Virus record (IMG/VR): IMGVR_UViG_2700988850_000001 | Span: 11,773-75,772 of that record | Length of the DNA stretch: 64,000 bases | Direction: 5' to 3' (one strand) | Source of the DNA: a virus | Taxonomy: Duplodnaviria; Caudoviricetes | Part shown: positions 25,908 through 59,080 of the stretch, in pieces | Numbering within the stretch: position 1 is the first letter of the stretch | Layout of the letters: each line of letters starts with the position of its first letter | The notes under the pieces: model-generated | Told to the model about the DNA's origin: nothing | Seen by the model: only the letters and a program-made list of their open reading frames with translations | Databases searched by the model: none | Translations under genes and position numbers: made by a program

Positions 25908-26746
25908 TAGCTGAACACCGCCTTCTTGTAAATGTCATCCAGGATCATGTCGAACACGCGGCGTCCGTCGATCCTGAAGTCTGCGTACCGATTGTGGACC
26001 AGGCTGTCCGAGTAGTACTTGAGCTGGTTGATGGTGTTCCGCCACCGACTCAGGTAGCGCACCAGACCCTCGCCGCCCTGCGTAAGTTCCGGGTACATCT
26101 TGACGGCGTTGATCAGTCCGAGTTCATGGATCACGTCACGTGCAAAGGTGAGTGGATCACTCACGCTGAACATGTCCACGTAGTAGGGGAGACGCTTGAG
26201 CAAGGTGGTGTTGGGATCGGACGATCCGATGATATCACCTTGTGCGCAGATTTCCCAGACCCTTCCCTTCCAGTCTCCCCACCATCCGTCAGCGGGAGCG
26301 AAGCTGATACCCTCGCCGCCTGGGTCCGGGCCGACGATATGCCCTGGCTGGCGGTGCGGGTTGGCGATCAAGTAGATACCCTTGATCTTCAGCATGGTGT
26401 CGCGTGCCACCCGGTCACCATCGTTCGCCATGCGAATGAGATGCTTGATTGCCTTCGTGACGACCGTGCCACCCTGGCTGTAACCGGCAACGAAGATTGC
26501 CTGCCTGGTGAATCGGTTGTCGATCAGGATTTTGACAAGCTTGTTCACGCCGATCATGTAGGAAGAAGAGTAGGTGGGCTCACCAGACTTCAACCCGAAG
26601 GCTGCCGGGTACGGCAGCGAGAACTCTTGGAACTCGTTCGGCAGCTTGCTCGAGATGTTGGACAGCATCCCGACTACCTTGTCGCTAGGCGACCCGCTGG
26701 AAACTTCCCCGGTCCCCGAGACTGCGATGAACAGATTGTTTTTCAT
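25907..26746 (-). CDS. lysB: Lysin B-like cutinase / mycolylarabinogalactan esterase
   Basis: SGTG, GYSQGG nucleophile elbow, ANPHRQ, GDII and C-terminal H..Y. Confidence 0.8.
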   Translation of the reverse strand: MKNNLFIAVSGTGEVSSGSPSDKVVGMLSNISSKLPNEFQEFSLPYPAAFGLKSGEPTYSSSYMIGVNKLVKILIDNRFTRQAIFVAGYSQGGTVVTKAIKHLIRMANDGDRVARDTMLKIKGIYLIANPHRQPGHIVGPDPGGEGISFAPADGWWGDWKGRVWEICAQGDIIGSSDPNTTLLKRLPYYVDMFSVSDPLTFARDVIHELGLINAVKMYPELTQGGEGLVRYLSRWRNTINQLKYYSDSLVHNRYADFRIDGRRVFDMILDDIYKKAVFS

Positions 26747-26912
26747 TCTCTTCTTTCTTGTAGAGGAAGTCAACTGTGACTGCACGGTACCCGAGAGCCT
26801 TGCCTGTGTGCTGCGGCTTGTGCCCCCACTTGGACGGCGCGAATTGAAACACGAAGGTGAGAATCGCTAGGCACAGTGCCAGCAACACCAGGACAAGGCC
26901 CCCGTTACTCAT
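26685..26912 (-). CDS. Small membrane protein
   Basis: N-terminal TM segment; ATGA overlap with the upstream gene. Confidence 0.5.
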   Translation of the reverse strand: MSNGGLVLVLLALCLAILTFVFQFAPSKWGHKPQHTGKALGYRAVTVDFLYKKEENEKQSVHRSLGDRGSFQRVA

Positions 26913-27322
26913 GTCAAATCCTTCCCCTCAAGAATCTCTGCAATGCGAGGCCCCACCCAGCCTTCCGGCTTGCCAATCTTCGAGACCAGCGGCTCACCCT
27001 TCCAGACGATGGGGCCATGCTTGCCGTTGATCTTGTCGTCGTTGGAGCGAGCAACTTCGGCTGCGGCTGCCCTGGTCATTTCCAGGCCGAACTTGGCGAC
27101 AGCATTTCCATAGGCGACCACGATGATATCCAGGAGCGCATCGAGTTCTTCAACTTCGTCATCTTCGGCGACGGCATTCCAGTATTCCCTGATCTCTTCG
27201 CTCAGCATATCCAAGCGCTCGGCGTCAAGTTCTTCCGTGTACTCCTGCTCCGATTGTCCCGACACCACCATGAACTTCTCGGTAGCTTCGATCAGTCCGA
27301 TGGGGTTGTTCTGCTCAGTCAT
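26909..27322 (-). CDS. MazG-like / PRA-PH nucleotide pyrophosphohydrolase
   Basis: EE..E...E.LDAL.D..V...V..SN..K...KI.KPEGW..P pattern. Confidence 0.75.
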   Translation of the reverse strand: MTEQNNPIGLIEATEKFMVVSGQSEQEYTEELDAERLDMLSEEIREYWNAVAEDDEVEELDALLDIIVVAYGNAVAKFGLEMTRAAAAEVARSNDDKINGKHGPIVWKGEPLVSKIGKPEGWVGPRIAEILEGKDLT

Positions 27323-27519
27323 ACGAGTTCTTCCTCTTCCATTTCCTTGGCGTACTTGTCTGCCTGCATCTGGGCGATGCTACCGACGTGATCGGCAGCC
27401 ATGGTGATGAGCGTTGCTACTTCTGGATTACCGAGTGGGCTGTTCGCACTGATAGTCACCCGCACATCTACGCCGGTGAACTTATCCTCAGCCCTTACAG
27501 ATACGTTCATGGTCTCCAC
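27319..27519 (-). CDS. Hypothetical protein
   Basis: 66-aa coupled ORF. Confidence 0.5.
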   Translation of the reverse strand: METMNVSVRAEDKFTGVDVRVTISANSPLGNPEVATLITMAADHVGSIAQMQADKYAKEMEEEELV

Positions 27520-28064
27520 ACATTCGAGTTGGCCTTGCGTTCTCTACGTTCCTTCTCGCGTCGCTCCATGAGTTCCAGAGCTGCGATACCTTGGGCCGTC
27601 AGGCCGTAGGTTCCAAAGTGGGAAGGCTCGTTATCCTTGATGCCGTACTTCAGTTCGATCAAGACGAACGAAAGTGCATCCGGACCCTGGTCAATCATCA
27701 CGGACTCGACCCGGATCACGTCGCGATCGTCCTCAATGAGCACCCCCTGCAACGCGTCCTCCGTCCCCTTCTGTAGGTTGGTGGCATCCGCTCCGTTGCG
27801 AGTTGAAGTGCGAGAGTCGGTAGTGACTTTGTACCCGTAGACCTGTCGCGAGAACGAGAATCGCAGGGCGTAGTCGCCAGGAAGAACTCTCGCGCCGAGC
27901 AAGGTAAGCTCGTCCTTCACCGCGTTCTGGTAGACGACCAGGTTCTTATTGGGTCCGACTGAACCACTCAGCTTCTTGGTTCCGGGGACGCGTCGGATGG
28001 ATACGTCACCGATTGCCCAAGGCTCAGGGTTGAGGGGGAGTGCATACGCGACAATGTTAGACAC
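27507..28064 (-). CDS. RusA-like Holliday junction resolvase
   Basis: DATNLQKGTEDALQGVLIEDDRDV matches the RusA D..N..K...D.L......DD..V motif. Confidence 0.8.
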   Translation of the reverse strand: MSNIVAYALPLNPEPWAIGDVSIRRVPGTKKLSGSVGPNKNLVVYQNAVKDELTLLGARVLPGDYALRFSFSRQVYGYKVTTDSRTSTRNGADATNLQKGTEDALQGVLIEDDRDVIRVESVMIDQGPDALSFVLIELKYGIKDNEPSHFGTYGLTAQGIAALELMERREKERRERKANSNVWRP

Positions 28065-40833: not shown

Positions 40834-42768
40834 TCACATTAGGCGTTTGCCTAGATGCTGCACGACACGCGGATAATCCTCGTGCCCGTGTACTGCCACA
40901 GTATCGAGTCCGTGAGCGGTCGGGGAGTCCGTGCAGATTCCCACGCCGAGAAGCGTGATCCCCTTCTGCTTGCACAGTCTGATCTCACTCTGTAGCACGG
41001 GAAGTTCTTCCCTTGTTCCAGCACCAGGCATGGCACCGTCGGTGAAGTACATGATGATTTTGTCCGTGGCTCGAGACTTCTCAATCATCTTCCGGTAGAA
41101 CTGCAACGAGTGACCGTCGAAGTTTGAACCGGCGTTGCCCATGAGACGGAGGCGATCCTTGGTTGCCGAACTCCACGGGTCCTTGACAGTCTTGACCGTG
41201 TGGATATCCATGGTGTACCCACCAGCCGCATGCCCCGTGTTGTGGGTGTAGATAGAGAACTTGATACCGAGTCGCTGGCATACCTCAGCCAGTGCGTACA
41301 CGGATTCCTTGAGCATCTGTAGCCGGTTCTTATTCTGACCGTAGACGCCAGAGGAAGTCGAGCCTGAGATATCGAACCCGATCAGGACTTCGTAGTCCCG
41401 CTTGTCCGGCACCTTCTTGGTCTGGAACAGTCGCCCGTCCTTCGGATTCCATGCACGCTTCCCCAGCGACGACGATGCAATGCGCCCCGCCTTCTGGTTG
41501 CGATGGTACTCAACCCGTGCATTGATACCGAACGCGATGCGAGCATGGTTAACCGCCTTGCCTAGCACCCGCTCGGATGGAATCTCCATATCACCTTCCC
41601 ACTTGTCGCCATGGCAAGGTCCAGCGTCAGCTTCATGCACACGGATGTGATCAAAGCTGCCGGGGATGTTGTCAAGGTGCTCGAGGTTCATCACCACCCG
41701 ATCCATGGCGTGTGAGAAGTTGGGGTCGTGGTCCTGCGGGAGACCGCTTCCGCCACCCTCACCATCCTCGGCCTGCGTCACTTCACCCTCGCCTGCACCG
41801 TGACCCAGGATTCCCTTAAGGATGCCACCGAGAAGCTTCATAAGCTCCTCGAACTCCTCACGTTCTTCGTCGGTCATTTCCTCTACAGGCTTTCGGTTCT
41901 CAGTGAAGAACCCAAGCTCACGCAGCTCGGCGAGAAGTTTCGCCGATGCAATCAGCGTTGCCTTCGCATCGGCGTGGTCGGCAACGTCACTCAGGATGGA
42001 CTGAACCTTGGGCGTCTCGACAGCATCCACCGCGTCGTCGTCAAGGTGCCCTCGAAGATTGAACCCTTCCATGCTGAACAGGCACCCGATCATGACCTGC
42101 TCGTCTCGACTACGGTCACCCCAGAGCAGGTAGCTTCCGTCATCCATGGGGGTGCCGTTGCGCAGAATGTCCTGGCTTGTTGCTCGCATACTCAGCCGCA
42201 AGGCTGGTTCGAGCTTGTAGCTGGCCGTGTTGATCCGGTGATCTTCCAGCGGCATGTTCAACATGCTCAGGTGCGGATGAATCTTGCTAGCCAGCGAGAG
42301 TGAGGTTTCACACTTCGAGCTGTCAGTCCGCCTCCACAGCTCCTGGATGTGATCATTGTACTCGGGAAGAATCGGTCGGATTAGATCGTAGATATCACCG
42401 ATGCCGTAGTACGAGAACTGATGAAAGCTTCCGTGCATGATGTGCGCCAGCTCGTGGTGCAGGTGCGTGGTGACTTCATCCCGACTCTTGCATGCCCGGC
42501 AGATCAAGTGCCCGTCATATCCACGTGCGCCACACAGATTCATCTGGTGCTTGATCCTGTCGCCGAGCGAGGCGGGCGGACGAATCTCGATCTTGACTCC
42601 ATCCGTCTGAGTCTTGGTGGACGGAACTACATAGACCCGCCTGCCCGCCTTGCTGCTGGCGTACCGAGAAAGACCGGGCGTCATCTTGCGGAACTCAGAG
42701 TAGGCACGGCGTGCTCGCGCTTCGGCGTTGCGCTTTGCCTGTTCGGTGGCCGGTTCAAGCATGGACAT
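40834..42768 (-). CDS. VWA-domain protein (CobT-like) with N-terminal HExxH motif
   Basis: TDG..I, HELAH, ED.RI; MIDAS DISGS...TDG. Confidence 0.82.
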   Translation of the reverse strand: MSMLEPATEQAKRNAEARARRAYSEFRKMTPGLSRYASSKAGRRVYVVPSTKTQTDGVKIEIRPPASLGDRIKHQMNLCGARGYDGHLICRACKSRDEVTTHLHHELAHIMHGSFHQFSYYGIGDIYDLIRPILPEYNDHIQELWRRTDSSKCETSLSLASKIHPHLSMLNMPLEDHRINTASYKLEPALRLSMRATSQDILRNGTPMDDGSYLLWGDRSRDEQVMIGCLFSMEGFNLRGHLDDDAVDAVETPKVQSILSDVADHADAKATLIASAKLLAELRELGFFTENRKPVEEMTDEEREEFEELMKLLGGILKGILGHGAGEGEVTQAEDGEGGGSGLPQDHDPNFSHAMDRVVMNLEHLDNIPGSFDHIRVHEADAGPCHGDKWEGDMEIPSERVLGKAVNHARIAFGINARVEYHRNQKAGRIASSSLGKRAWNPKDGRLFQTKKVPDKRDYEVLIGFDISGSTSSGVYGQNKNRLQMLKESVYALAEVCQRLGIKFSIYTHNTGHAAGGYTMDIHTVKTVKDPWSSATKDRLRLMGNAGSNFDGHSLQFYRKMIEKSRATDKIIMYFTDGAMPGAGTREELPVLQSEIRLCKQKGITLLGVGICTDSPTAHGLDTVAVHGHEDYPRVVQHLGKRLM

Positions 42769-42780
42769 GACGCCCCCTTT

Positions 42781-44388
42781 CTAGTGGTTGCTCTTGTTAA
42801 CTTCGGACAGGATCATCTCGCGTGCCTCAGGCTCGAGATAATCCGCAGCCGCCAGCCGGAAGGCTTCGGGCATGGAGAACAGTCGCAGTGCTCGTGCCAC
42901 CTTGATGTTCTGTCGGATACCCCACGTCACCGGAAGGGCACCGTCCTCGCCGAGCTTGCGCAGCTCGGCAGAGATCTTCATGAGCGTGGACAGCTCGGAG
43001 GAAGGTAGGTCGAACCCGTCCAGCTTGCACCGCTTGAGAATGATTTCCTTCTCAAGCTTCTCCGTCGGGTAGTCCACGAAGATGTGCATGAGTCGGGAGC
43101 CGTCAGCATCGGAGATAACTTCCGCGCCAATGTTGCGGGCATCCCACGCCGGGTTCATTGCCATGCCCAGGTAGCTGAACTTGTGCCGGTCTACGACCTG
43201 ACCCTCGTTAGCATCAAGGACTAGCTGCTTGGCGTTGTCTGTCATGGGTCGGATGAACTGCCAGACTTCCGGGCCACCGACGTTCGGCTCGTCCAGCACC
43301 TGAACACAAGGCTTGGCCCACGCTCGAGGGATGCGGCCCTCCACGAAGTAGGTACCCTTGCCTTCTTCGTAATGCGTCTTGCCTTGCAGGTCGTCCAGCT
43401 CAGTTGACTTGGTGATACTCACCCGCTCGAACGGGAGACCCATGAGCCAGGCGAGCCAGCGGAACGCCTCAGTCTTACCCGTGCCAGCCACGCCGTGCAG
43501 TGCGGGAGTCTCACCCAGGTCCCAGATCGCACTGATCTTGTAGAGCAGATTGTCGTGGTCCTTGTACAGCTCAGGATGGTTCTCGTCCCCGGTCTGAGGA
43601 ATCTTTGCCAGCTCGTCCGGGTCGTTGATGAAGAAGTCCCGGTCGAAGATGGGGAGCATTACACTCTTGGTGTGGCTGTCGTTCCAGATTTCACGCCACG
43701 CCTTGATGCCACAATCCTTGTCCTCCTGTGTCACAGGCTTGTCTGTGCTGTAGTCTTGCGGGTCCTGGACGGGTGCCTCAGGCTGCGGAACATTCGCCCC
43801 GAACTTGTCGAGCTTAGGGAATGCAGGCTGCAATTCAGGGAACAGGATCGCGTCACCGAGAAGGTTGTCGATGTGCTCGTCAATGTTCGGGGCGTGGATC
43901 ATCTCGCCTTCGGTGCACGCCTCGGCAACCTTGCCAGTCTTGGCTTGGGAAACTAGGATGCCACGCTTGGCGCAGTACCCATAGTTCATGCCGAACTCTT
44001 TCTGCACCACCTTGGAGTCAACGTGGAAGTGGCAGCTCCGGCACGAGTGGGGCGCACCCCACTGCTCGCGACTTGACTGCTGCCCCTCGGGGGTCGGCAT
44101 GGTCGGCATGGGAAGTGCGACGGCGAGCGACGGCGAATCCTTTGCCGAGCGAGGGCGCGGCTTGCCGTGCGAGTCACAGGTGCGAGCGACCTGCTCCTTG
44201 ATCTTTGAGTTCACCTTCGGATCACCCTCGGGTGAACCGAGGAGCTTGCCCTTCAGGGGGCAGGTGTCAGCCTTGAGAATGGTTCCGTAGGCAGACACCT
44301 GCCCCTCGAAGCTTAGAGCCGCGAGCATGCTCGGACAGGTTGCACACGACTTAGCCGGTGCGGTGGTCTCCTCTTGTACCTCAGTCAT
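42781..44388 (-). CDS. MoxR/CobS-like AAA+ ATPase with Cys-rich N-terminus
   Basis: Walker A GVAGTGKT, Walker B VLDE, AMNP sensor; several CxxC motifs N-terminally. Confidence 0.85.
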   Translation of the reverse strand: MTEVQEETTAPAKSCATCPSMLAALSFEGQVSAYGTILKADTCPLKGKLLGSPEGDPKVNSKIKEQVARTCDSHGKPRPRSAKDSPSLAVALPMPTMPTPEGQQSSREQWGAPHSCRSCHFHVDSKVVQKEFGMNYGYCAKRGILVSQAKTGKVAEACTEGEMIHAPNIDEHIDNLLGDAILFPELQPAFPKLDKFGANVPQPEAPVQDPQDYSTDKPVTQEDKDCGIKAWREIWNDSHTKSVMLPIFDRDFFINDPDELAKIPQTGDENHPELYKDHDNLLYKISAIWDLGETPALHGVAGTGKTEAFRWLAWLMGLPFERVSITKSTELDDLQGKTHYEEGKGTYFVEGRIPRAWAKPCVQVLDEPNVGGPEVWQFIRPMTDNAKQLVLDANEGQVVDRHKFSYLGMAMNPAWDARNIGAEVISDADGSRLMHIFVDYPTEKLEKEIILKRCKLDGFDLPSSELSTLMKISAELRKLGEDGALPVTWGIRQNIKVARALRLFSMPEAFRLAAADYLEPEAREMILSEVNKSNH

Positions 44389-50450: not shown

Positions 50451-52425
50451 TCAGACTGGTCGGGTTATGAACCGGGCAAACAACCCGGCGACCAGGCAGA
50501 ACAAGCCTGCCGCGATACTCTGCGAAGAGTTCACGATGCCTAAGTCTGGCACCATTAACACTCCACCTACGCCCAGCAAGAATGCCAGGCTGAACGCTAC
50601 TACCATGAACACTCGGGCAAGGCGTACTACCATCGGCTGCGCTTCCGGTATGCCGGATTGTGCATGCGCTCTACCATTTCGAGATGCTCTCGCCATGCCT
50701 TGCTGTCCTGCTCATTCCAGAATGTATTCCAGGCGCACACTGCCGAGACTATTCCGGCGAAGATTGGCAGGAAGCCTATGGCAAATCCCATGATGACAAG
50801 CCACGCGCCTACGCCGATCCCGACCGCTGCGCCTACTGCGCACAGTGTCGTGATGACTTTGTATATCATCACTCACCCCGCATCAAGATGTTCAGCTCAT
50901 GCTTGAACTCGTGGACGTAGGTGTCTCGGATGCTGGTGATCCGAGTTGCGTACACCTCAGGCATGATGCCCCAGCTCAGCAAGATGGGTTCCATGCCCCA
51001 GTCACTCGAGTCGAAGGCGCTGAGGTGCCCATCGCACAGCCCGTCGAAGCCCTTGTTCTCGGCTTCCCATAGGTCGTGGGCATTCATCCACGCCAGGTTC
51101 TTCAGGAACCTGTCGAGGTCACCGTCGAGCACGGACTTCTCGCCCTTGCTGATGACTGTCTGAGCTGCACGCATGATGTTCATACGTACCGGCTGAACGT
51201 GTGACATTAGAATGGCCGCCTTCCTAGATGAATCCAGCTGACTTCTACCCTGCTGGTGTTGGTTGCACGGGTGCAGGGCTGCCCTGCCTTTGCGTTGCAG
51301 ATGGGGCAGTCACGCTCAGCGCGCGCCTTCCGATCTATTTCTTCCCAGCTTGGCATGCTACTCCCCTGCCTCTAGTTCGATTCGGTAAGTCAGGCCGCTA
51401 CTCTCGAAGGTCACGACACCATCTGCCTCGAACGTCATAGGGGTCTCGGTCCGAAGTCCCTTGGTCTCCACCATGGCGAGGGCAACCTTCATGGCCCACT
51501 CGGTGAACTCCCCAAGGTTCTCGAAGTCTTGCTCACCTACCCGTATGTTCTCGACATACGTTATTGCCTTAACCTTCATGTCTAGCCTCACTCTCTGGTG
51601 GTCGTGCCGCCATGCTGGTTGCACGGGGACTTCATGCTGCCGTACTTGTTAGAGAATCCGCCATACTCAGGTGCGTAATACTGAATCTCTACCACGCACC
51701 CGCATTCAAGTTTGACGTCATCTTCCCAGTCGTCGGACATTTGTTCCCGTCCTTTGCTCTGGTACTAGTCTATCATAAGGCATTCAGAATGCCAACCCTA
51801 TCCCCGGATATACCGGGGATAAGATTCGAACTCTGACTGCTAGCGTCGGGTGTAGATGCGCTGAGTTGCGCGACGCTGGTTCTTCCGAGCACGGGCTACC
51901 TTCCACGCTTGGTCCAGCGTGGCCCCCTCGGTGCAGTAGATGACGATGAACTCGCTCTCGTCCACCTGAGACCGGCGCTCGCCCTGCTGCTGTAGGTACT
52001 CGACCGCCCGGTTACCGGCCTTCGTGCCGATGAACTTGTCAGATGCCTTCTCGATTGCGACAGACATATCTTGCCTCCTATTCTGGGATGCGACCGACCA
52101 GGCAGTATGCCCACCCGATTACGTCGCCGTTGCTCGGGTCGATGATAGACCAAGACTCGCCGGTATGATCCGTGCCGCCATGGACGGTACGGTACCCGTC
52201 GAAGTCCTCACGCAGCATGGTCATGAGGCAGCGGCGCGCGCTGCTGTAGTGCTGGAAGTTGCTCTCGAAGTTGTTCCATCGCCGAAGGTTGGCCGGTGCA
52301 TGTGCCTCGACAAAGATCGAGTAGACTGCTGGCTTCTGATTCGGGAACTCATGCCGCCCGACCCTGAAGGTTTCGGCGCTGTCCGCCTCGGCACCTTCAA
52401 TGGGAACGCTGACTCTTGTTGCCAT
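50451..52425 (-). other. Cluster of small hypothetical genes (two membrane proteins 50451-50872; 50869-51207; 51358-51579; 51588-51740; 51840-52067; 52078-52425)
   Basis: Leftward ORFs; 51588-51740 translated by hand. Confidence 0.55.
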
Positions 52426-52426
52426 G

Positions 52427-52747
52427 CTACACCCCACTCACAGAGTAGTTCACGTTGGTACGGACAACCTTGATGCGACCACGAACCGGGCTGTCGTAGT
52501 AGTACGACTCACTGCCCATGGAGATGCGCTTGACCCTGGCATCGGGATGCTGCGCTCTCGCGAGACGCCTTGCCTCGGCAGCCATGCGGGTAGACCGACT
52601 GCGCATCTGGTAGCCGTCGTACTCGATAGCCTCGACGCGAATAGTCTTGTACTTCTTGTCGTACTCACCCTGCAAGATCGAGTCCACGTGATTCCCCGGT
52701 ACTACCGGGTTGTCAGCTTCTGTTTCGATTCGCTGTACGGATAACAT
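52427..52747 (-). CDS. Cassette ORF 1, hypothetical (106 aa)
   Basis: ATG abuts repeat R1. Confidence 0.7.
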   Translation of the reverse strand: MLSVQRIETEADNPVVPGNHVDSILQGEYDKKYKTIRVEAIEYDGYQMRSRSTRMAAEARRLARAQHPDARVKRISMGSESYYYDSPVRGRIKVVRTNVNYSVSGV

Positions 52748-52842
52748 CTTGCCTCACTCTCGGTGGATTGTTCTAAGTCTAGCCTGACACTCTGAGAATG
52801 TCAACACGTTTCACGGGCTGCCCGTGAAACATGCAAACGCGC

Positions 52843-53199
52843 TCAGACTTCCCGGTAGATGTGGCACTCACCCTCGAGGAAGTAGTCCCCGTTCTGGTGG
52901 AACACGTGAATGAGTCCCTGCTTCATGCCGACACGCTGCCCGGTGTTCGCGTACAGAATGGCATTCATTCTGTGCGAAGTCGTACGGGTATTGTGCCCGC
53001 GACTGTTGAGGATCACCTTGCCCGGCTGAACATAGGCAATGGTGCTGCTGTGGTGACGGATCGCCACGATGGACGACGGACTTCCTGGATCACGACGCGC
53101 CCAGGTCTGGTACGCAATCTTCTTCCAGTCCTCACCTGTTTTCTCGGTGAGCTTCAGCAGATTCTCGTGAGTCATGCTGGGGAGCTTCAAGTTCGTCAT
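52843..53199 (-). CDS. Cassette ORF 2, hypothetical (118 aa)
   Basis: Exactly bounded by R2 and R1. The track's MRLD prefix is repeat sequence. Confidence 0.75.
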   Translation of the reverse strand: MTNLKLPSMTHENLLKLTEKTGEDWKKIAYQTWARRDPGSPSSIVAIRHHSSTIAYVQPGKVILNSRGHNTRTTSHRMNAILYANTGQRVGMKQGLIHVFHQNGDYFLEGECHIYREV

Positions 53200-53297
53200 G
53201 TCTAGCCTCACTCTCGGTGGTCTGGTACAAGTCTAGCCTGACATTCTGAGAATGTCAACACGTTTCACGGGCTGCCCCGTGAAACATGCAAACGCGC

Positions 53298-53672
53298 TCA
53301 GATACTTGGGCGAGGCGTATGGTCGCTGGCGCTCACTGCCAGTCGAGCAGCCATGCTGGCACCGATCTGGACAGTTTCTTCCAGCGTCGCGTGCCGAATG
53401 TAGATCACCGGGTGGTGCTGCTCGTCCTCGGGTCCGGCGTACGGACGCCGGACGACGTACTTGACCTCAGTTGCCCCGGCGTAGTTCACCTCGTCGTACT
53501 CGAGGGTTCCGCCCTGGAAGTTCGCGAACCGATCCACGTACTCCTTGACGAAGTGCCAGTCTCCCGTCACACGGTCGATATGGCTGCCGTTGTGATACAC
53601 GTTCACGACGTAGTGTTCTTCCAGCGTCGCGATTCCCGCGTAGCTGCCCGTGTAAGTCGGTTTGATGATCAT
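53298..53672 (-). CDS. Cassette ORF 3, hypothetical (124 aa)
   Basis: Exactly bounded by R3 and R2. Confidence 0.75.
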   Translation of the reverse strand: MIIKPTYTGSYAGIATLEEHYVVNVYHNGSHIDRVTGDWHFVKEYVDRFANFQGGTLEYDEVNYAGATEVKYVVRRPYAGPEDEQHHPVIYIRHATLEETVQIGASMAARLAVSASDHTPRPSI

Positions 53673-53774
53673 GTCTAGCCTCACTCTCGGTGGATTGATC
53701 TAAGTCTAGCTGATATTCCCTAGAATATCAACCCGAATGCTGTGACATTTCTGGCACAGCACCAGGCAAACACG

Positions 53775-54260
53775 CTAGGGATTCTGGGTCAGGCGATACC
53801 TGTACTTGGCTGGGGTAGTGCTGTCCTCGGACTCGTACACGTCCCAGTGAGTGAACGCCGGGTAGAAAGTGCAGCCCTGTTCTGTGTGCCGGGTGAGGGC
53901 GCGCAGAATCTCGAACTGAGCTTCCTTGCGAGACCCACCGAAGATGGTCTCAACCTGGAAGTCCGGGTCGTCTGCATAGTCCGGGTCCATGCGCTCGGAC
54001 TTCTCCACGAACCACAGGTCTGCCGAATCTTCCTCGGACAGTAGTTCGATGGATGCCGTGGCGACAGGCTCGCCGTTCCGGTCAAGTATCACGTACTCCA
54101 CGAACGAATCTGTTTCCAGAGTCGGACGCGCAGTGTCGCCGGACACTCTGCATTTTTTCGACAGTGCCAGTCGTGCCTGTCGAAAGTTCTCCCGGTACAG
54201 CTCTGCCAGCGGCATGCTGTCTGGGGACAGATCGTTGATGGTGACTTTCCAAGCCCTCAT
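53775..54260 (-). CDS. Cassette ORF 4, hypothetical (161 aa)
   Basis: Exactly bounded by R4 and R3. Confidence 0.75.
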   Translation of the reverse strand: MRAWKVTINDLSPDSMPLAELYRENFRQARLALSKKCRVSGDTARPTLETDSFVEYVILDRNGEPVATASIELLSEEDSADLWFVEKSERMDPDYADDPDFQVETIFGGSRKEAQFEILRALTRHTEQGCTFYPAFTHWDVYESEDSTTPAKYRYRLTQNP

Positions 54261-54357
54261 GTCTAGCCTCACTCTCGGTGGTCTGGTACAAGTCTAACCT
54301 GACATTCTGAGAATGTCAACACGTTTCACGGGCTGCCCGTGAAACATGCAAACGCGC

Positions 54358-54771
54358 TCAGGCTATTTGGGTACAGAACCAGTCGAACATTTCCGGCGTA
54401 GGTTCGCCGGGAAAGTGTGCCGCATATTCCCAGGCACCGTCTGACAGTGAACCGCTGGCATCTGGTTTCGTGTGTCCCCAGACCTCGAGGAAGTAATGCG
54501 GGCTGCTGCCGAACACCAGTCCTCGCGATATGCGAACACTGAACGAGTCGCAACGGAAAACGATCTTCCCATCCTCGAGTGAATGCCAGTCCTGGATATC
54601 CAGCGACACTTCCATTTCGTCAGTGTTCATCTGGTCCAGCAGGAATCCCACATTGTTCGCCCGGAACTCGAGAAAGAACTTCTCGGTGAAGTCCTCCCAA
54701 ATTACGTTGTCGCGCCGGGATACTGCCGGGTTCTGGAATGTGACGGTTATGCCGTCTGCCGTATATGGCAT
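54358..54771 (-). CDS. Cassette ORF 5, hypothetical (137 aa)
   Basis: Exactly bounded by R5 and R4. Confidence 0.75.
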   Translation of the reverse strand: MPYTADGITVTFQNPAVSRRDNVIWEDFTEKFFLEFRANNVGFLLDQMNTDEMEVSLDIQDWHSLEDGKIVFRCDSFSVRISRGLVFGSSPHYFLEVWGHTKPDASGSLSDGAWEYAAHFPGEPTPEMFDWFCTQIA

Positions 54772-54864
54772 TTCTAGCCTCATTTCTCGACGGAAATGGC
54801 ACTCTCATTCTGAGAATGTCAACCCGTGCCCAGAATGCTGCCATTCTGGACCAGGCAAACGCGC

Positions 54865-55176
54865 TCAGTCCTCGGTGTTGACCTCGATAGGCTGCCAGTC
54901 GTGGTCAGCCGGGTTGCTCAGGATGAATGCGGAAAGTCCACCCGCATATTCCCGATCCACCAGTCGCAGAATCTGCGCCTGGTTGAGTCCCTGAATCTGC
55001 TCGCATTCCTCGTAAGTGCAGCAGTCCAGGCACCAGCCGACCATTTCGTCCAGCTGGTTAGGGAAGTACTCGATAATTTGGGCGTAGCTGCCCGGATTCC
55101 AGCACTCGACCAGTCCTGTGACCCGAATGGGTTTCACGGCAGCCAAGCGGAGCACATTCTGATTCTTGAATGGCAT
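54865..55176 (-). CDS. Cassette ORF 6, hypothetical (103 aa)
   Basis: Exactly bounded by R6 and R5. Confidence 0.75.
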   Translation of the reverse strand: MPFKNQNVLRLAAVKPIRVTGLVECWNPGSYAQIIEYFPNQLDEMVGWCLDCCTYEECEQIQGLNQAQILRLVDREYAGGLSAFILSNPADHDWQPIEVNTED

Positions 55177-55279
55177 TTCTAGCCTCACTCTCGGTGGATA
55201 TTGCAAGTCTAGCCTGACATTGCTGAGAATGTCAACCCAAATGCTGTGTCATTTCTGGCACAGCACCAGGCAAACGCGC

Positions 55280-55618
55280 TCAGCTACCCGGCATCGGCCA
55301 CGGCACACCATTCTTATAGGCGTCCGTGCAGATTCCTCCGGTGTAGTCATTGAGCCAGAACGTCATGTCCAGGCTCTGGAAATACTTGGGGTAGCACACT
55401 GTCGTGTCGATAGGCTCGCCACAGATGCCATTCCCCATGGTTTCGCAGTCCCACAGGTCAGAATCTTCCTCGATTCTGCCGATCGGCGCCTCGTAGGTTG
55501 TGGTAGCGGCAAGTTCTGCGCCCTCGAACCCTCGAGTGTCCAGCTGGTCTGCGACGAACAGACTCCCGGCGATAGATGCGCCGATGCCTATTGCTGCCAC
55601 GTATCCGGCAAGTTTCAT
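55280..55618 (-). CDS. Cassette ORF 7, secreted or membrane-anchored Cys-containing protein (112 aa)
   Basis: N-terminal hydrophobic segment; WDCETMGNGICG motif; bounded by R7 and R6. Confidence 0.75.
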   Translation of the reverse strand: MKLAGYVAAIGIGASIAGSLFVADQLDTRGFEGAELAATTTYEAPIGRIEEDSDLWDCETMGNGICGEPIDTTVCYPKYFQSLDMTFWLNDYTGGICTDAYKNGVPWPMPGS

Positions 55619-55711
55619 TTCTAGCCTCATTTCTCTGTGGAAATGGCACTCTCATTCTGAGAATGTCAACCCGTGCCCAGAATGCTGCCATTCTGGACCA
55701 GGCAAACGCGC

Positions 55712-56152
55712 TCAGACTGCGCAAATTTCGAACATGATGGATCGGTCCAACTTGGACATTTTGAACCGGGTGTTGCCGTGCGGGACTGTGACCGTGGTCA
55801 GATTCCACCCCAGAGCAGTCAAGTTCTGGACGGTCTCGGTCAGTCGCATCTGAGCGACGTGACGAGTTCCCTCGTAGACAATCTTGTCCGTGAAACCGTC
55901 CGGCGTCCGGTCGATTCTGACCAGCTGGGCACGGTAGCTCTCAGCGTTGAGATAATGGTTCTCGAGCCGACGCGAGGCGTCTGCTACTGCGTCCAGCAGG
56001 TTGTTGAACGTTTTGTTGGCGACCTTGCCGTCGATAGCGATATGCCAACGGCAGGACTTCTCGTAGAACTGAATCAGCCCGTCGATTGTCTCGTACGTTC
56101 CGTCAGTCCCGCGAACCAGGTCACAGGTGCCGATCTGGAATTGATGACGCAT
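55712..56152 (-). CDS. Cassette ORF 8, hypothetical (146 aa)
   Basis: Bounded by R8 and R7. Confidence 0.75.
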   Translation of the reverse strand: MRHQFQIGTCDLVRGTDGTYETIDGLIQFYEKSCRWHIAIDGKVANKTFNNLLDAVADASRRLENHYLNAESYRAQLVRIDRTPDGFTDKIVYEGTRHVAQMRLTETVQNLTALGWNLTTVTVPHGNTRFKMSKLDRSIMFEICAV

Positions 56153-56240
56153 TTCTAGCCTCACATTCTGTGATGTGGAAACAGACAGTGGATACTGTCA
56201 ACCCGTGGGCAGAATGATTGCTCATTCTGCCCCAGGCAAA

Positions 56241-56597
56241 CTATACCCGACCGTTCTGGCGGTCGAACTCTCGCATAATGCGAGCCTGTTCCTCGAGCAT
56301 TGCCGCGATTACTTCCGACCGGCGACGTTCGATCCGATCCTGCTCGCGCAGAATGCGGGTCTGTTCCTCGCGAATTTCTGCCTCGAGGTTTTTGTTGTAC
56401 CCGTTGCGCCCATCGAAACCGGACTTCTGGCGCTCGGTTACCGTGCGTCCCACACCCGAACTAATTTTCGGGTCGCGGGCATTTTTGCGGGCTGCGAGTC
56501 CGAACTGGCGAGTACGAATACGCGCACTATCGGGGAGAGACAGCCTGGCCGTCGGGTCGATGACGCGACGCCGCTCCTGGAAAAAGTCGTCCAGCAT
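56241..56597 (-). CDS. Cassette ORF 9, Arg/Glu-rich hypothetical (118 aa)
   Basis: Bounded by R9 and R8. Confidence 0.7.
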   Translation of the reverse strand: MLDDFFQERRRVIDPTARLSLPDSARIRTRQFGLAARKNARDPKISSGVGRTVTERQKSGFDGRNGYNKNLEAEIREEQTRILREQDRIERRRSEVIAAMLEEQARIMREFDRQNGRV

Positions 56598-56745
56598 TTC
56601 TAGCCTCATTTCTCGAGATGAAATGGAATGATCTAACTCTAACACACCGCCTAGGCGGAATGTCAACTCATTACCTAGAACGGAATCTAGGTAATCAGGT
56701 GACACTACGGATCGGCCCGTAATGATGGGCCATTCCCGTTGTGTC

Positions 56746-56795
56746 GAGAGACCGGAAACGGTTTCCCGTTTTGGCGAAACCGTTTCCGGTCTCTC
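56746..56795 (-). terminator. 20-bp hairpin downstream of ncRNA copy 1
   Basis: gagagaccggaaacggtttc / gaaaccgtttccggtctctc. Confidence 0.6.
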
Positions 56796-56814
56796 TCGCT
56801 ACTCTGTGACTCAA

Positions 56815-57072
56815 CCGGTGCTCTCGTAGCAGACATGAGCGCCCTAGCTGACCGGGCATGTCGTTTACCGGAGAAATGCAGTCACATTTCACGTCGCGCT
56901 CCCACGGGATCTACTAGCGTGATTATCCGACCTAGCCTCTACAGATCCACCATAGAGTTTCAGTCGGCGCACTACTAGCGCACCAGAACCAGGGTAAACG
57001 CTAACCTATTTTCTGACTCGCAACGGAGACCCCAGGCTATGGTGTCGCATTTTCCGTTGCGTTTCGTTGCTG
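56815..57072 (-). ncRNA. Structured ncRNA, copy 1 of an unrecognised family
   Basis: Paralogous to 57228-57485 with compensatory stem changes; own promoter at 57079-57108. Confidence 0.7.
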
Positions 57073-57161
57073 TGGTCCACACTACCACGGTTGCCCGCGA
57101 AATGTGAACTCATTTTCGGGTAAACCCACGTCCTAGAATCTAGTCCGTTTCGGGTTACCCG

Positions 57162-57212
57162 GTCTCACTCGAGAATGTGAACCCGTTTCCGGGTCACTGT
57201 CTCGAGTGAGAC
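57162..57212 (-). terminator. Long hairpin downstream of ncRNA copy 2
   Basis: gtctcactcgaga ... tctcgagtgagac. Confidence 0.55.
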
Positions 57213-57227
57213 GTTACGGAATGTGTT

Positions 57228-57485
57228 CTCGAGGTGCTCTCGTAGCAGGGTTTAGCGTCCTAGCTGCCCGGACAACCCGTTTACCTCGAAATGCGAACAC
57301 ATTTCGCCCGTGCGAACCATGGGATCTACCGACGTTTCGCTCTAGTACTAGTCTCAACCGATCCACAGTTGAGCCGTTCGTAGAGTGCACTATCGGCGCA
57401 CCAGAACCAGGCACAAACACTAGCCAATTTACTGCCACAATCGGCGTCCAGGCTGGGACACGCGGCCGATTGCGTTTCGATCTGA
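57228..57485 (-). ncRNA. Structured ncRNA, copy 2 of an unrecognised family
   Basis: Same motif order as copy 1; own promoter at 57490-57520. Confidence 0.7.
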
Positions 57486-57879
57486 GACGACCCTACCACG
57501 GTTGCCCGTGGGAATGTCAACTCATTCGCGGTTCACTGGTCAGTCGGTCCGACGGTTGCCTCGCTGCCACGAATGGCAGGACATTCCGACCTCGTACACG
57601 TGGAACGTGTAGTCGTGGGTCAGGGGAGCGACTAGAGGCCCGTACGGGCCTACCCACGAGGGGAGCGTCGGAACGGTTTCCCATTCCGGCGTCTGTCGTC
57701 TGACTGTTGTCGGCACCCATGGCTACGTGCGAACACGTACCCATTTCGGGTGACTGACCAGAACCGCTATTGAGATGTCATAGGTCCGAAATGCGATTCG
57801 CATTTCGTCGGCGACTGTTCCCGCCTCGCTCGGTACTGCGTTGAGCGTGGCACCAGTCTAAACACATTTTCCGACAGAT

Positions 57880-59010
57880 GCAAAACTCGCAGGTCAGGGC
57901 CCTGTTTTGGCGCGAAATGACACGTCATTTTGGGCCAAAAAACGATCGTTGCAGGCGGTTTTCGTCTAGGCGTCGCAAACCTGTGACCAGGGACTTTCGA
58001 TTAGAAACATTGCGAGTGTGTGAGGGTGTGACGTGTGACGAAACAGAATCGACTTGTTTTCGCAGGTCAGGGGGCGAAAAAGCCCTACTCATTAGCGGGG
58101 CGAACGAGGTCGTTTGTGCTGGTAGACGCGTTTTTGAGACGTCATTTCGTCACACGGGACCGGTTGACTCGCGAACGGGTCGGTAACATCCCACAAAATG
58201 CCACGTCATTTAGGTTTTTCGATTCGAAAATGCGACGTCATTACGTTCGAACGTGTGACCGATAATCGCGGTTATCGGCCACGGGCAGACCAGCGGAAAC
58301 CCGTCGTGACCAGGCATTTTCGATTAGGAATAGGACAAATGGGACGAACATTTGTTCGAGGGGGTCACACACACATCGCGCCCTTACCCCTCGCCGCGCG
58401 CAGAAAATTTCGTAGAAAAAGATAAGTACTGCTCTTAGGCGCTGACGATCCCGCGATCAGCAGATCACGCGATCCTACGATCCGCAGATCAACCGATCCT
58501 AAGATCAAACGATCCTCACGATCCGTAGATCACCAGATCACTCCCGCGTGAATCCCCCATGACCTTATGAGACGTCAGCCATGCCTCCGGCAAAACCATC
58601 TACTAAGTATCCAATAATTACAAGAACTAGTGAGGGTAACCTAACTAAATCTAATAACCCCTAAATAACCCCTAAATAATACCTATATATATCTATATAT
58701 ATACTACGTATATATGCAGGTCAGAGTATGTTTTCACCCCCCGTGCCGCTGATTAGTTTCAGGGACGCTCGATCGGCGACACCTTGTAACCCTCGGGGAC
58801 TTCCCCCGCATGGCCGCCGACCCAAGTACTGGGCCCCCCTAAGGGGGGGTCTGAGGGGGTCTCTTCGTCATGCCCTAAATCCTAAATACCTAAATACCCC
58901 AAAACCATGTCTGACCTGCGAAGATGGCCCGATTTATTAGGTTGAACAAATACGGTATTTAGGGCACAGGATCGGGCGTGCCCTAAATCTGCCCTAAACC
59001 CTTGTAACCC
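57880..59010. other. Putative replication origin or packaging/terminus region
   Basis: No credible ORF; GATC array, AT-rich TATA tract, CCCTAAAT and GCAGGTCAG repeats; next to primase/helicase genes. Confidence 0.55.
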
Positions 59011-59018
59011 AAAGCAAG

Positions 59019-59058
59019 TAAAACCCCGGCCACCTAGAGGAAGGTGACCGGGGTTTTA
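59019..59058 (-). terminator. Intrinsic terminator ending the primase operon
   Basis: taaaaccccggccacct-agagga-aggtgaccggggtttta. Confidence 0.75.
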
Positions 59059-59080
59059 AGTCTAGAGGGGAGGCTGAGAC

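Follow-up and report, generated by a model that had tools for sequence, protein, structure and literature searches.

Two tandem paralogous non-coding elements with a conserved, strand-specific RNA structure at the head of an actinobacterial phage gene array

The early gene array of the phage investigated here is headed by two tandem, paralogous, non-coding segments which share a conserved, strand-specific RNA structure. Both lie on the minus strand of the window, i.e. the whole 64,000-nt stretch of phage DNA that was analysed, and each comprises a body of about 260 nt whose ends are predicted. We consider it very probable that the two segments are real genes of a structured, complex-folded non-coding RNA and that this RNA represents a new family. 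Our preferred explanation goes further: the paralogous genes would supply an RNA with a complex fold which probably acts in trans, binding a partner, from the start of infection. Taken as a whole, this statement falls in our judgement a little short of an even call; the trans-acting, partner-binding mechanism considered by itself is put forward tentatively and is somewhat doubtful.

Paralogy and non-coding nature of the two copies

An earlier note on this DNA had described two diverged copies in tandem on the minus strand, and both were found (copy A, 57486-57224; copy B, 57072-56806). They are embedded in a series of further elements, listed here in the order in which the minus strand is read:

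57490..57520, minus strand: promoter-like element P_A (TTGACA at 57520-57515, a 19-nt spacer with the palindrome CCACGG..CCGTGG, and TGg-TAGGGT at 57495-57490)
57224..57486, minus strand: conserved body of RNA copy A (predicted 5' end near 57483; 289 bits to model R1)
57162..57212, minus strand: long hairpin after copy A (13-bp outer stem and an inner stem, -37.5 kcal/mol, without a U tract; a terminator or a processing/stabilising hairpin)
57118..57160, minus strand: second hairpin, between copy A and P_B (-21.3 kcal/mol)
57079..57108, minus strand: promoter-like element P_B (TTCACA at 57108-57103, an 18-nt spacer, and TGg-TAGTGT at 57084-57079)
56806..57072, minus strand: conserved body of RNA copy B (predicted 5' end near 57072; 294 bits to model R1)
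56746..56795, minus strand: long hairpin after copy B (stem of about 21 bp, -41.1 kcal/mol, without a U tract; noise matches to Rfam 'miRNA' models fall here)
56701..56745, minus strand: second hairpin, between copy B and the promoter of the first array gene (-25.8 kcal/mol)
56636..56666, minus strand: third promoter-like element of the same type (TTGACA-19-TAGAGT), aligned with P_A and P_B, which would drive the first gene of the array
56241..56597, minus strand: first small gene of the array (118 aa, Arg-rich, with a homologue in phage Perlina; context only and not specific to the RNAs)

When copy B was compared by BLAST with the whole 75.8-kb virus record, it matched itself and one other place, copy A, with 71% identity over 298 nt. 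A covariance model likewise found exactly two places in the record. All nine ordered motifs which the note had read from the copies are present in both and in the same order, whereas none of the 166 other loci compared possessed more than three of the nine. Against the rest of the window the RNA bodies showed marginal similarity only, with the P8 hairpin (see below) matching a palindromic -35 region.

The resemblance of the copies is not that of small protein-coding paralogues. All six frames were compared, and no shared frame is free of stops in both copies; in addition, the frame is shifted between A and B by indels of 1, 2 and 4 nt. Conserved small ORFs, which had been raised as a possible cause of the similarity, can be set aside in view of these stops and indels. 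The conservation is organised in blocks and does not follow codons. Two 16-nt blocks are invariant between the copies, and about 90 unpaired or junction bases are identical in A and B.

The common fold and its compensatory changes

A model of 59 base pairs is 100% paired in both copies, and 13 of its pairs are changed on both sides. None of 500 shuffles reached this level, and six versions in which the partners were slid by 1-3 columns gave 0-1 pairs changed on both sides. RNAalifold independently arrived at 69 pairs, 11 of them compensatory. The five compensatory stems proposed earlier are real: P1, P6, P10 and P10a show changes on both sides, and in P9 the two variants (CGAGGU/ACCUCG vs CCGGU/ACCGG) can be read directly in the sequence. 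G-U and U-G pairs, including a swap of UG to GU in P6, are compatible with the minus-sense strand only. Because of these wobble pairs the structure is specific for that strand, which is also the strand of the promoter-like elements. What is expected of a structured non-coding RNA, namely strand-specific compensatory changes that keep the helices, was thus found. The covariation draws on two full sequences and a partial list of differences from relatives, a set too small for statistics of the R-scape type, and within this set P2, P3, P4a and P8 are invariant.

In the model fold a 5' hairpin, P1/P1a, would present a conserved AGCCU loop. The central domain would consist of one long interrupted helix formed by P3, P4a and P4b, with a conserved GGUGC bulge, arranged around the P6 hairpin (loop UGGAU); the P8 hairpin is predicted as a separate element. 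P9 would close a 3' domain containing P10/P10a (loop GGNCAGCUA) and P11 (loop ACGAG). Pseudoknot pairing between GGAUC and GAUCC is possible, both sides being invariant, and competes with P3/P4a. Further possible pseudoknots in the model are P2, which crosses P9, and GGUGC/GCACC. The P4b helix was absent from the earlier note. Two other pairings were discarded. A hairpin P5 (GGUGCGC/GUGCAC), suggested by folding, has three of its seven pairs broken in the relative described below, and the long-range helix P4b fits better. A kissing loop of 6 bp between L8 and L10a, which pairs in both copies, was dropped since two substitutions in the relative both break it.

This relative, about 93% identical, was found in public silage contigs, one of which spans both copies. 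Inside the two RNA bodies 28 substitutions are known, and the 15 that fall in model helices all keep pairing. They comprise six double compensations (C-G to G-C in P11 of both copies, A-U to G-C in P6, G-C to A-U in P9, and C-G to U-A as well as A-U to G-C in P4b) and three single changes which preserve wobble pairing. The two changes on the 5' side of P4b were read by hand from a loose contig end, which agrees with the full-length contig at seven of seven overlapping differences. Copy B of the relative has only 7 substitutions and no broken helix. These compensations lend independent support to the predicted fold.

It might be argued that no functional RNA is involved at all and that the region is duplicated non-coding DNA with protein-binding palindromes, or a decayed small gene, the structure being incidental. 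The region is indeed rich in palindromes of the AATG..CATT type, also around the -35 boxes, and P8 resembles such a site. The folding energies of the single sequences are unexceptional and no better than those of shuffles (z = -0.44 and -1.07). However, this explanation would have to accommodate 13 both-side changes between the copies and 6 in the relative without a broken helix, wobble pairs that make the structure strand-specific, and conservation in blocks without a shared frame. We regard it as very improbable.

Since the helices vary by compensation while unpaired and junction bases are fixed, the RNA would work through its three-dimensional fold and not through long antisense pairing. 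Few bacterial or phage RNAs exceed ~200 nt and combine many conserved helices with invariant junctions; those whose function has been solved are ribozymes, riboswitches, RNP scaffolds and, recently, RNA-only cages. The present RNA could itself be a ribozyme or a self-assembling RNA: the core might process itself out of a longer early transcript, or palindromic loops (GAUC in L6, AGCU/CUAG in L10a) might drive the formation of homo- or hetero-oligomers. A length of ~260 nt, ten or more helices, possible pseudoknots and the two invariant 16-nt blocks are typical of demanding tertiary folds, both conserved hairpin loops contain 4-nt palindromes, and GOLLD, ROOL and OLE are described as RNA-only multimers (10.1101/2024.12.08.627333). 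On the other hand, palindromic tetranucleotides in loops are common by chance and there was no likeness to ribozyme or large-RNA families of Rfam, so that catalysis or assembly seems quite improbable to us.

Cassette layout and genome context

Each copy had been proposed to possess its own promoter. Like elements do lie ahead of each copy and can be aligned with the promoter of the first array gene, but a simple sigma-70 scan calls none of them. It misses them because the spacers are 18-19 nt long and the -10 box is TAGNGT. The three tandem elements have AATGAGTT(G/C)ACATT ... GTG(G/T)TAG(G/T/A)GT in common, and in the relative the indels in the P_A spacer cancel out (-1 at 57504, +1 at 57509). 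Transcription of the copies is predicted from this promoter-like sequence. One public run labelled RNA-Seq, which probably is DNA, holds two 151-nt contigs on parts of copy A and its flanks; none of the runs holding the stretch was identified as RNA.

The long downstream hairpin attributed to each copy is present in both cases with the energies given above. It is the first of a pair of hairpins, and such a pair follows each RNA as it follows the genes of the array. Unlike these 3' hairpins, the terminator at the end of the upstream operon is canonical and U-tailed. As the hairpins lack U tracts, read-through into the array, whose genes downstream of the RNAs encode 118-150 aa, is possible, which would favour a role in cis.

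In our preferred explanation each gene is an autonomous minus-strand cassette composed of a sigma-A-type promoter-like element, the RNA and a very stable 3' hairpin. The product would be a stable RNA, synthesised as soon as infection begins, which would act in trans as a decoy, sponge or scaffold by binding either a small ligand or a protein of the host or the phage. The presence of two copies could serve a higher dose or two specificities. A bolder proposal, to which we give a small though appreciable chance, is that a new class of large pseudoknotted phage RNA is itself the effector, either as a sponge or decoy which, early in infection, captures an immune signal or a protein of the host, or as an RNA-only assembly or ribozyme, with two specificities diversifying between strains via compensated stems. 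If true, it would add RNA to the mostly protein-based repertoire of host takeover and counter-defence of phages in Actinobacteria.

Alternatively the copies may be cis-acting leaders, the structured RNA transcribed from P_A or P_B deciding on read-through past the hairpins into the early array as a riboswitch, an attenuator or by put-like antitermination. The elements are in sense orientation directly upstream of the array, and hairpins without U tracts may not stop the polymerase alone. The 3' end of copy A (CUCGAGAA) could pair without a mismatch with UUCUCGAG, which lies in the 3' arm of the hairpin of this copy, and CGAGAG..CCGG in copy B matches CCGGUCUCUCG; the 3' end of each RNA therefore resembles the 5' arm of its own hairpin. 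Riboswitches and T-boxes are known to occur as complete regulatory units arranged one after the other, and HK022 possesses two put RNAs. However, the complementarity was found post hoc and involves palindromes (CUCGAG, CCGG), and alternative pairings of 6-8 bp could hardly compete with hairpins of 13-21 bp and -37 to -41 kcal/mol. Moreover, the first gene is preceded by a promoter-like element of its own, of the same kind as P_A and P_B, none of the riboswitch or T-box models matched, and Rhodococcus phage Perlina runs the same array without such a leader. We consider a leader function unlikely.

On one side the cassettes are bordered by the first gene of the early small-gene array, on the other by an origin-like, non-coding hub of 1.5 kb just downstream of the primase and helicase genes. 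Within the hub, GATC occurs about 12 times at intervals of 8 bp; an AT-rich stretch and four exact CTGACCTGC boxes are present as well. Perlina, the nearest named phage, keeps the adjacent hub and the start motif of the array, and the covariance model found no RNA copy anywhere in its genome. The promoter-RNA-hairpin cassettes with which the early gene array begins are therefore accessory. The phage itself is an actinobacterial phage of the soil/silage type, and a host in the Mycobacteriales is suggested by a LysB-like cutinase and by helicase matches to Rhodococcus, Gordonia and Tsukamurella phages.

This neighbourhood could be explained if the RNAs were associated with replication and cooperated with the hub as primers or in copy control, similarly to the RNA-based replication origins described for extrachromosomal prophages of cluster A parABS mycobacteriophages (Wetzel et al. 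2020, PMC7157519). As in the cluster A regions described there, an actinobacteriophage non-coding region of a few hundred nt with no ORF common to relatives lies in a replication-related setting, transcription being reported in that case and predicted in ours (PMC7157519). In addition, the 3' half of P6 in copy A has 11 nt (GGATCGGTTGA) in common with one GATC unit. Unlike the cluster A phages, however, the present phage carries a tyrosine integrase and no ParB (ParB_N, PF02195, was absent from the complete virus record; the control was positive in 11 of 14 genomes), and the cassettes would be transcribed away from the AT-rich/GATC region. The RNAs are dispensable for this type of origin, given that Perlina has the hub but lacks them. 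Model R1 scored at best 6 bits, with 151 of 272 positions unaligned, on positions 26000-27600 of Alma, the one compared of the five origin regions in PMC7157519, and BLAST found no match in phages or plasmids (see below). A role in replication is thus improbable in our view.

Between the body and the hairpin each copy has a tail which is not conserved but is of comparable length in A and B (~16-17 nt after P9); no part varies more in the relative than the tail of copy A, where 4 changes fall at 57218-57224. Such a layout would suit guide-RNA-like decoys, in which the body is a scaffold for a host RNA-guided nuclease (TnpB, IscB, Cas12-like) and the 16-20 variable nucleotides before the hairpin are a guide; phage sgRNAs subverting Cas9 are the subject of a report (10.64898/2026.06.01.729453). 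Nevertheless, the tails have no match elsewhere in the phage genome (14 nt, up to 1 mismatch), there was no Rfam match of the omega-RNA or tracrRNA type, and the phage possesses neither a reverse transcriptase nor a TnpB/Cas12f-type domain (PF07282 was absent from its record, a test which covers phage-encoded nucleases). We think decoys of this kind extremely improbable. With regard to a retron msr-msd or a DGR template, RVT_1 (PF00078) was absent from the record and the differences between A and B are not adenine-specific.

Searches for related RNAs and comparison with known systems

The family had gone unrecognised in the earlier note, and among the 4227 models of Rfam 15 none matched at the gathering threshold anywhere in the window. 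At E<=10 there was noise only, i.e. matches of miRNA precursors to the hairpins and a 13-16-bit match to a 21-nt pseudoknot motif and sX8. A cobalamin riboswitch was considered on account of the CobS/CobT-like genes of the phage and the AGCCUGG loop. AGCCUGG lies in the loop of the 5' hairpin, the B12 box being expected in the 3' half of a cobalamin aptamer, and RF00174 and RF01689 gave no match at E<=10 with permissive filters. No Rfam match was obtained for the T-box leader (RF00230) either; the UGGUGC bulge belongs to the central domain and is separated from the hairpin by ~170 nt.

No other members came to light when viral, metagenome, genome, phage and plasmid collections were searched with patterns, BLAST and covariance models. 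In its distant mode blastn gave no match in 50,697 phage records and none in plasmids. Exact 16-mers hit 32 and 7 loci in viral contigs, which corresponds to chance (best model score 7.7 bits). The 47 viral and 79 genome loci found with two-block patterns were rejected, having at most three of the nine motifs, and the model rejected all 4 genome loci (0 viral) obtained with a further pattern of this type. Three-block patterns yielded 0 loci in metagenome, viral and genome contigs; a degenerate version yielded 3 viral loci, which were rejected. The first strict pattern would miss even the 93% relative, and pattern scans therefore catch near-identical blocks only. The single match of R1 among 151 genomes drawn evenly from the class of a Streptomyces genome (15.7 bits) was rejected, being located inside a coding frame, D-aminoacyl-tRNA-deacylase-like by eye, and 5 further genomes gave no match with the model. 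Neither viral nor genome contigs yielded relatives of the helicase, primase or integrase of the phage. Judging from the sequences searched, the RNA is so far known from one phage lineage only. PMC10690425 lists more than ten thousand candidates for structured RNAs of viruses, taken from IMG/VR; a term search of its main text gave no example from an actinobacterial phage, and the present motif may be among its supplementary candidates.

The system is experimentally approachable, since the phage is related to cultivable Rhodococcus and Gordonia phages; it is also compact, a single genome offering two natural variants and public data further ones. It suggests that actinophages can accommodate, in their early gene arrays, RNA cassettes organised in the same way as the protein-gene cassettes. 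Such RNA cassettes would escape annotation pipelines or be annotated wrongly as small ORFs, which is apparently what occurred in the equivalent non-coding hub of Perlina.

Several known systems share features with the two cassettes. GOLLD and ROOL are large, ornate non-coding RNAs of phages and prophages, ~600-800 nt long, whose function is not known. Like them, the RNA described here is phage-borne, larger and more intricate than typical sRNAs and seemingly encoded by standalone genes, and it has conserved unpaired blocks between covarying helices. It differs in its length of ~260 nt, in the lack of any Rfam match to these families, in having no adjacent tRNA genes (ARAGORN found none in the window) and in occurring as two tandem paralogues in one lineage.

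In HK022 two paralogous put RNAs are located just downstream of early promoters; put is ~70 nt long, consists of two stem-loops and is present in one copy per operon. As with put and with lambda nut, paralogous RNA elements lie here just downstream of putative early promoters and ahead of operons with hairpin terminators. Unlike put, they are two multi-domain RNAs of 260 nt in tandem, each with its own promoter-like element. Tandem riboswitches and T-boxes are similar in that a structured domain of 200-250 nt followed by a hairpin is repeated in series upstream of genes. In the present case, however, no riboswitch or T-box model of Rfam matched even at E<=10, each unit and also the downstream gene has its own promoter-like element, and no convincing antiterminator was found.

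Finally, the early region of T7 is headed by tandem strong promoters and contains RNase III hairpins. The arrangement described here is comparable, as three like promoters are predicted in series ahead of early genes and the long perfect hairpins without U tracts between the units are putative processing sites. It differs in that the segments separating the T7 promoters do not represent conserved structured RNAs.

Two putative RNA copies and their cassettes

The 64 kb studied are the right-hand part of a complete 75,772-bp IMG/VR virus record. Structural genes lie on the plus strand, and a long leftward block encodes primase and helicase, an SNF2 helicase, a PD-(D/E)XK nuclease, a tyrosine integrase and a LysB-like cutinase; a DNA methylase, RusA, an exonuclease, a sliding clamp and a CobT/CobS-like pair complete the gene content. 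The CobT-like protein (644 aa, phrog_5298) adjoins the CobS-like AAA+ ATPase (535 aa, phrog_5424, Pfam AAA_5) at 40834-44388 on the minus strand; such pairs are frequent in phages and their role is unclear. Among named phages the closest relative is Rhodococcus phage Perlina (helicase 53% identity), with more distant helicase matches in Gordonia, Tsukamurella and Rhodococcus phages. Because of these relatives the host is probably a mycolic-acid actinobacterium.

Two paralogous putative non-coding RNAs were delimited:

57486-57224, minus strand: RNA copy A
57072-56806, minus strand: RNA copy B

The copies can be aligned end to end with 71% identity (BLAST). No third copy was found in the virus record by BLAST, and the covariance model matched it in exactly two places. 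Both copies contain all nine motifs described in the earlier note, in the order given there; among 166 other loci compared, the highest count was three of nine. The indels in the alignment measure 4, 2, 1, 2, 1, 1 and 2 nt and no frame is open in both copies, every shared frame having stops in at least one. The plus-strand ORF at 57206-57703 (165 aa), antisense to copy A, depends on the sequence of that copy to stay open; over copy B the corresponding frame has stops, and the ORF is likely to be spurious.

The earlier note had also assigned each copy its own promoter and a long downstream hairpin. A promoter-like element does precede each copy, and on the 3' side of each lie a hairpin of very high stability (-37.5 and -41.1 kcal/mol) and, after it, a second, weaker one. 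The element consists of AATGAGTT(G/C)ACATT and TG-n-TAG(G/T/A)GT on either side of an 18-19-nt spacer that holds a palindrome, and recurs before the first gene of the early small-gene array headed by the RNA cassettes. This threefold repetition, together with spacer indels that cancel out in a natural relative (see below), suggests that the elements before the RNAs are promoters. A generic sigma-70 scan did not call them because it was limited to spacers of 16-18 nt and expected a TATAAT-like -10. The -35 boxes lie within imperfect palindromes, (G)AATG-N6-CATT(C), at 56654, 57096, 57169, 57508 and 57911, a form shared by the P8 hairpin of both RNAs; a phage regulator might use these palindromes as its operator at the DNA level.

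The family, unrecognised in the earlier note, has no match in Rfam 15 at gathering thresholds, and searches at E<=10 with the 2-kb region or each copy alone gave noise only. No match was obtained by blastn against 50,697 phage records and 72,556 plasmids. Viral, metagenome and genome contigs scanned for exact-block patterns returned chance matches only, and the covariance model had no credible hit among 156 actinobacterial genomes. Since exact blocks are required by the scans and the model was built from two sequences, distant members may be missed in these searches, as may close ones if the collections leave out records very near the window. The literature searched, including the main text of the viral structured-RNA survey PMC10690425, does not describe the RNA.

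Fold model and natural variants

RNAalifold predicted 69 pairs, 11 of them compensatory, from the two copies. A model of 59 pairs was derived from a listing of all helices possible in both copies and from natural variants.

Helices of the 59-pair model (columns of alignment A3)
P1: 13-21 / 47-55
P1a: 26-27 / 44-45
P2: 75-78 / 212-215
P3: 82-86 / 171-176
P4a: 88-90 / 166-168
P4b: 96-101 / 160-165
P6: 120-127 / 133-140
P8: 188-194 / 199-205
P9: 209-210 / 260-261; out-of-register extension CGAGGU/ACCUCG (copy A), CCGGU/ACCGG (copy B)
P10: 216-220 / 242-246
P10a: 221-224 / 234-237
P11: 247-250 / 256-259

All 118 cells of the model are paired in the two copies. Of the 59 pairs, 13 are changed on both sides between the copies (P1 3, P1a 1, P4b 3, P6 2, P10 3, P10a 1). 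None of 500 shuffles reached any of five measures, and sliding the partner by 1-3 columns left 0-1 both-side changes and 36-45% pairing; these controls are indicative only, since the two sequences are related and the structure was partly derived from them. Because the model contains several G-U pairs and a UG-to-GU swap in P6, the helices exist in the minus sense only. P2, P3, P4a and P8 are invariant and hence unproven. P2 crosses P9 and would therefore form a pseudoknot; in a nested alternative the same GUUU pairs with a 5' AAAC. The GGAUC/GAUCC pairing of the earlier note is possible in both copies but invariant, as is GGUGC/GCACC. Folded singly, the two sequences show no remarkable energies (z = -0.44 and -1.07).

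A word index identified six public runs containing part of the stretch, four of which were compared in detail. The whole of 56500-57700 is spanned by one silage contig, which is about 93% identical, with 80 substitutions and 10 gaps; this relative therefore has the tandem pair of copies too. A second silage run, a wastewater run and a bovine-gut run supplied shorter contigs that cover parts of the stretch. Among the silage-contig differences listed (40 of 78, all at or below 57389), at least 26 substitutions fall within the RNA bodies. Two further substitutions, 57395 and 57393, were read from the wastewater contig, where they lie in a loose end of 30 letters that agrees with the silage contig at 7/7 listed differences in the overlap; both were placed on the model by hand. 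In this combined set 15 substitutions fall in model helices and all 15 keep pairing. Three are single changes to or from wobble pairs (56986, 57304, 57299), and six double changes are compensatory.

Double compensatory changes in the relative
57245/57237, copy A: P11, C-G to G-C
56829/56821, copy B: P11, C-G to G-C
57369/57357: P6, A-U to G-C
56869/56817, copy B: P9, G-C to A-U
57395/57330: P4b, C-G to U-A
57393/57332: P4b, A-U to G-C

Loops, junctions, the variable segment and the 3' tail account for the remaining 13 substitutions. The bovine-gut contig also has the P11 double change; in it 57332 is changed and 57330 is not, its coverage there excluding the P4b 5' strand. Copy B differs from its counterpart in the relative at 7 positions and the flanks are equally similar, so that the pattern of change, rather than its rate, is informative. 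Two candidate elements were rejected: a hairpin GGUGCGC/GUGCAC, which loses 3/7 pairs in the relative, and a kissing of hairpin loops L8 and L10a, which loses two.

The origin-like hub, the array and Perlina

Between the terminator of the primase/helicase operon and the RNA cassettes lies a non-coding hub of 1.5 kb (57530-59080, minus strand):

59058-59019: U-tailed terminator of the primase/helicase operon
58874-58898 and nearby: TTTAGGG-type repeats
58653-58715: 11-nt repeat and (TA)n stretch
58444-58541: about 12 GATC at 8-bp spacing
57889, 58062, 58716, 58911: four exact CTGACCTGC boxes, nowhere else in the window

The hub resembles a replication origin or a control region. Within it, a promoter-like site TTGCAT-17-TAGACT (57883-57855) is followed by about 300 nt dense in hairpins (57530-57885, minus strand), several of the GAAATG..CATTTC type. 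No ORF there bears the array start motif, and the segment may give rise to a third non-coding transcript, not related to the two RNAs. The array (51500-56700, minus strand) comprises small genes in repeated modules of hairpin, TTGACA-17-TAGACT, short leader and start motif GAGGCTAGA(A/C)ATG (9-10 copies), and its intergenic units of 67-103 nt are repeated whole at 61-97% identity. RNA and array gene cassettes are of like construction.

Perlina has the same layout: primase, helicase, small genes, U-tailed terminator, non-coding hub and small-gene array. Its hub, partly common to both phages, contains an (AT)n stretch, TTTCTAATCGAAA repeats, a GCCGATAAC..TTATCGGTCAC palindrome and CTGACCTGCGA boxes; no GATC array was seen by eye in the equivalent stretch. 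Six short plus-strand 'hypothetical protein' CDS annotated there (record 66487-67737) are probably not genes, because conserved repeats and an AT-rich stretch occupy the region. The array start has a GAAATGAGGCTA-N-AAATG motif, as here, and Perlina has a homologue of the first array gene. Whereas the RNA cassettes intervene in the present phage, the Perlina hub is directly continuous with the first array promoter, and the covariance model found no RNA in the whole Perlina genome. The cassettes are therefore an accessory insertion, or were lost in Perlina.

What suggests a role of the RNAs in replication is their closeness to the hub, together with the fact that cluster A mycobacteriophages offer a precedent for origins based on RNA (PMC7157519). 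Such a role is quite improbable; those defining features of such origins that were tested were not found here.

What the RNAs may do

We are confident that these are two genes for a new, complex-folded RNA. About 90 unpaired bases are invariant, set between helices free to vary in sequence, and no extended complementarity of the RNAs to anything in the phage was found; this argues for a fold recognised by a partner and against an antisense regulator. An accessory trans-acting RNA would bind a factor of host or phage origin, or a small molecule, a mechanism we put forward tentatively. It would fit the RNAs' own promoter-like elements, their duplication, their position heading the early region and their absence from a close relative. 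The main rival, a cis-acting leader, is favoured by the lack of U tracts in the RNA hairpins, whereas the neighbouring operon has a canonical terminator, and by the resemblance of each RNA's 3' end to the 5' arm of the hairpin that follows it. We consider it unlikely, however: the alternative pairings are weak compared with the hairpins, the downstream gene has its own promoter-like element, and Perlina manages without such a leader. A ribozyme or a part in RNA assembly is highly improbable, and we give very little credence to a guide-RNA-like function.

Judged by its sequence and modelled fold, the RNA, which is narrowly distributed, is a new RNA family, and its general kind, the large structured phage non-coding RNA of unknown function, is already known.
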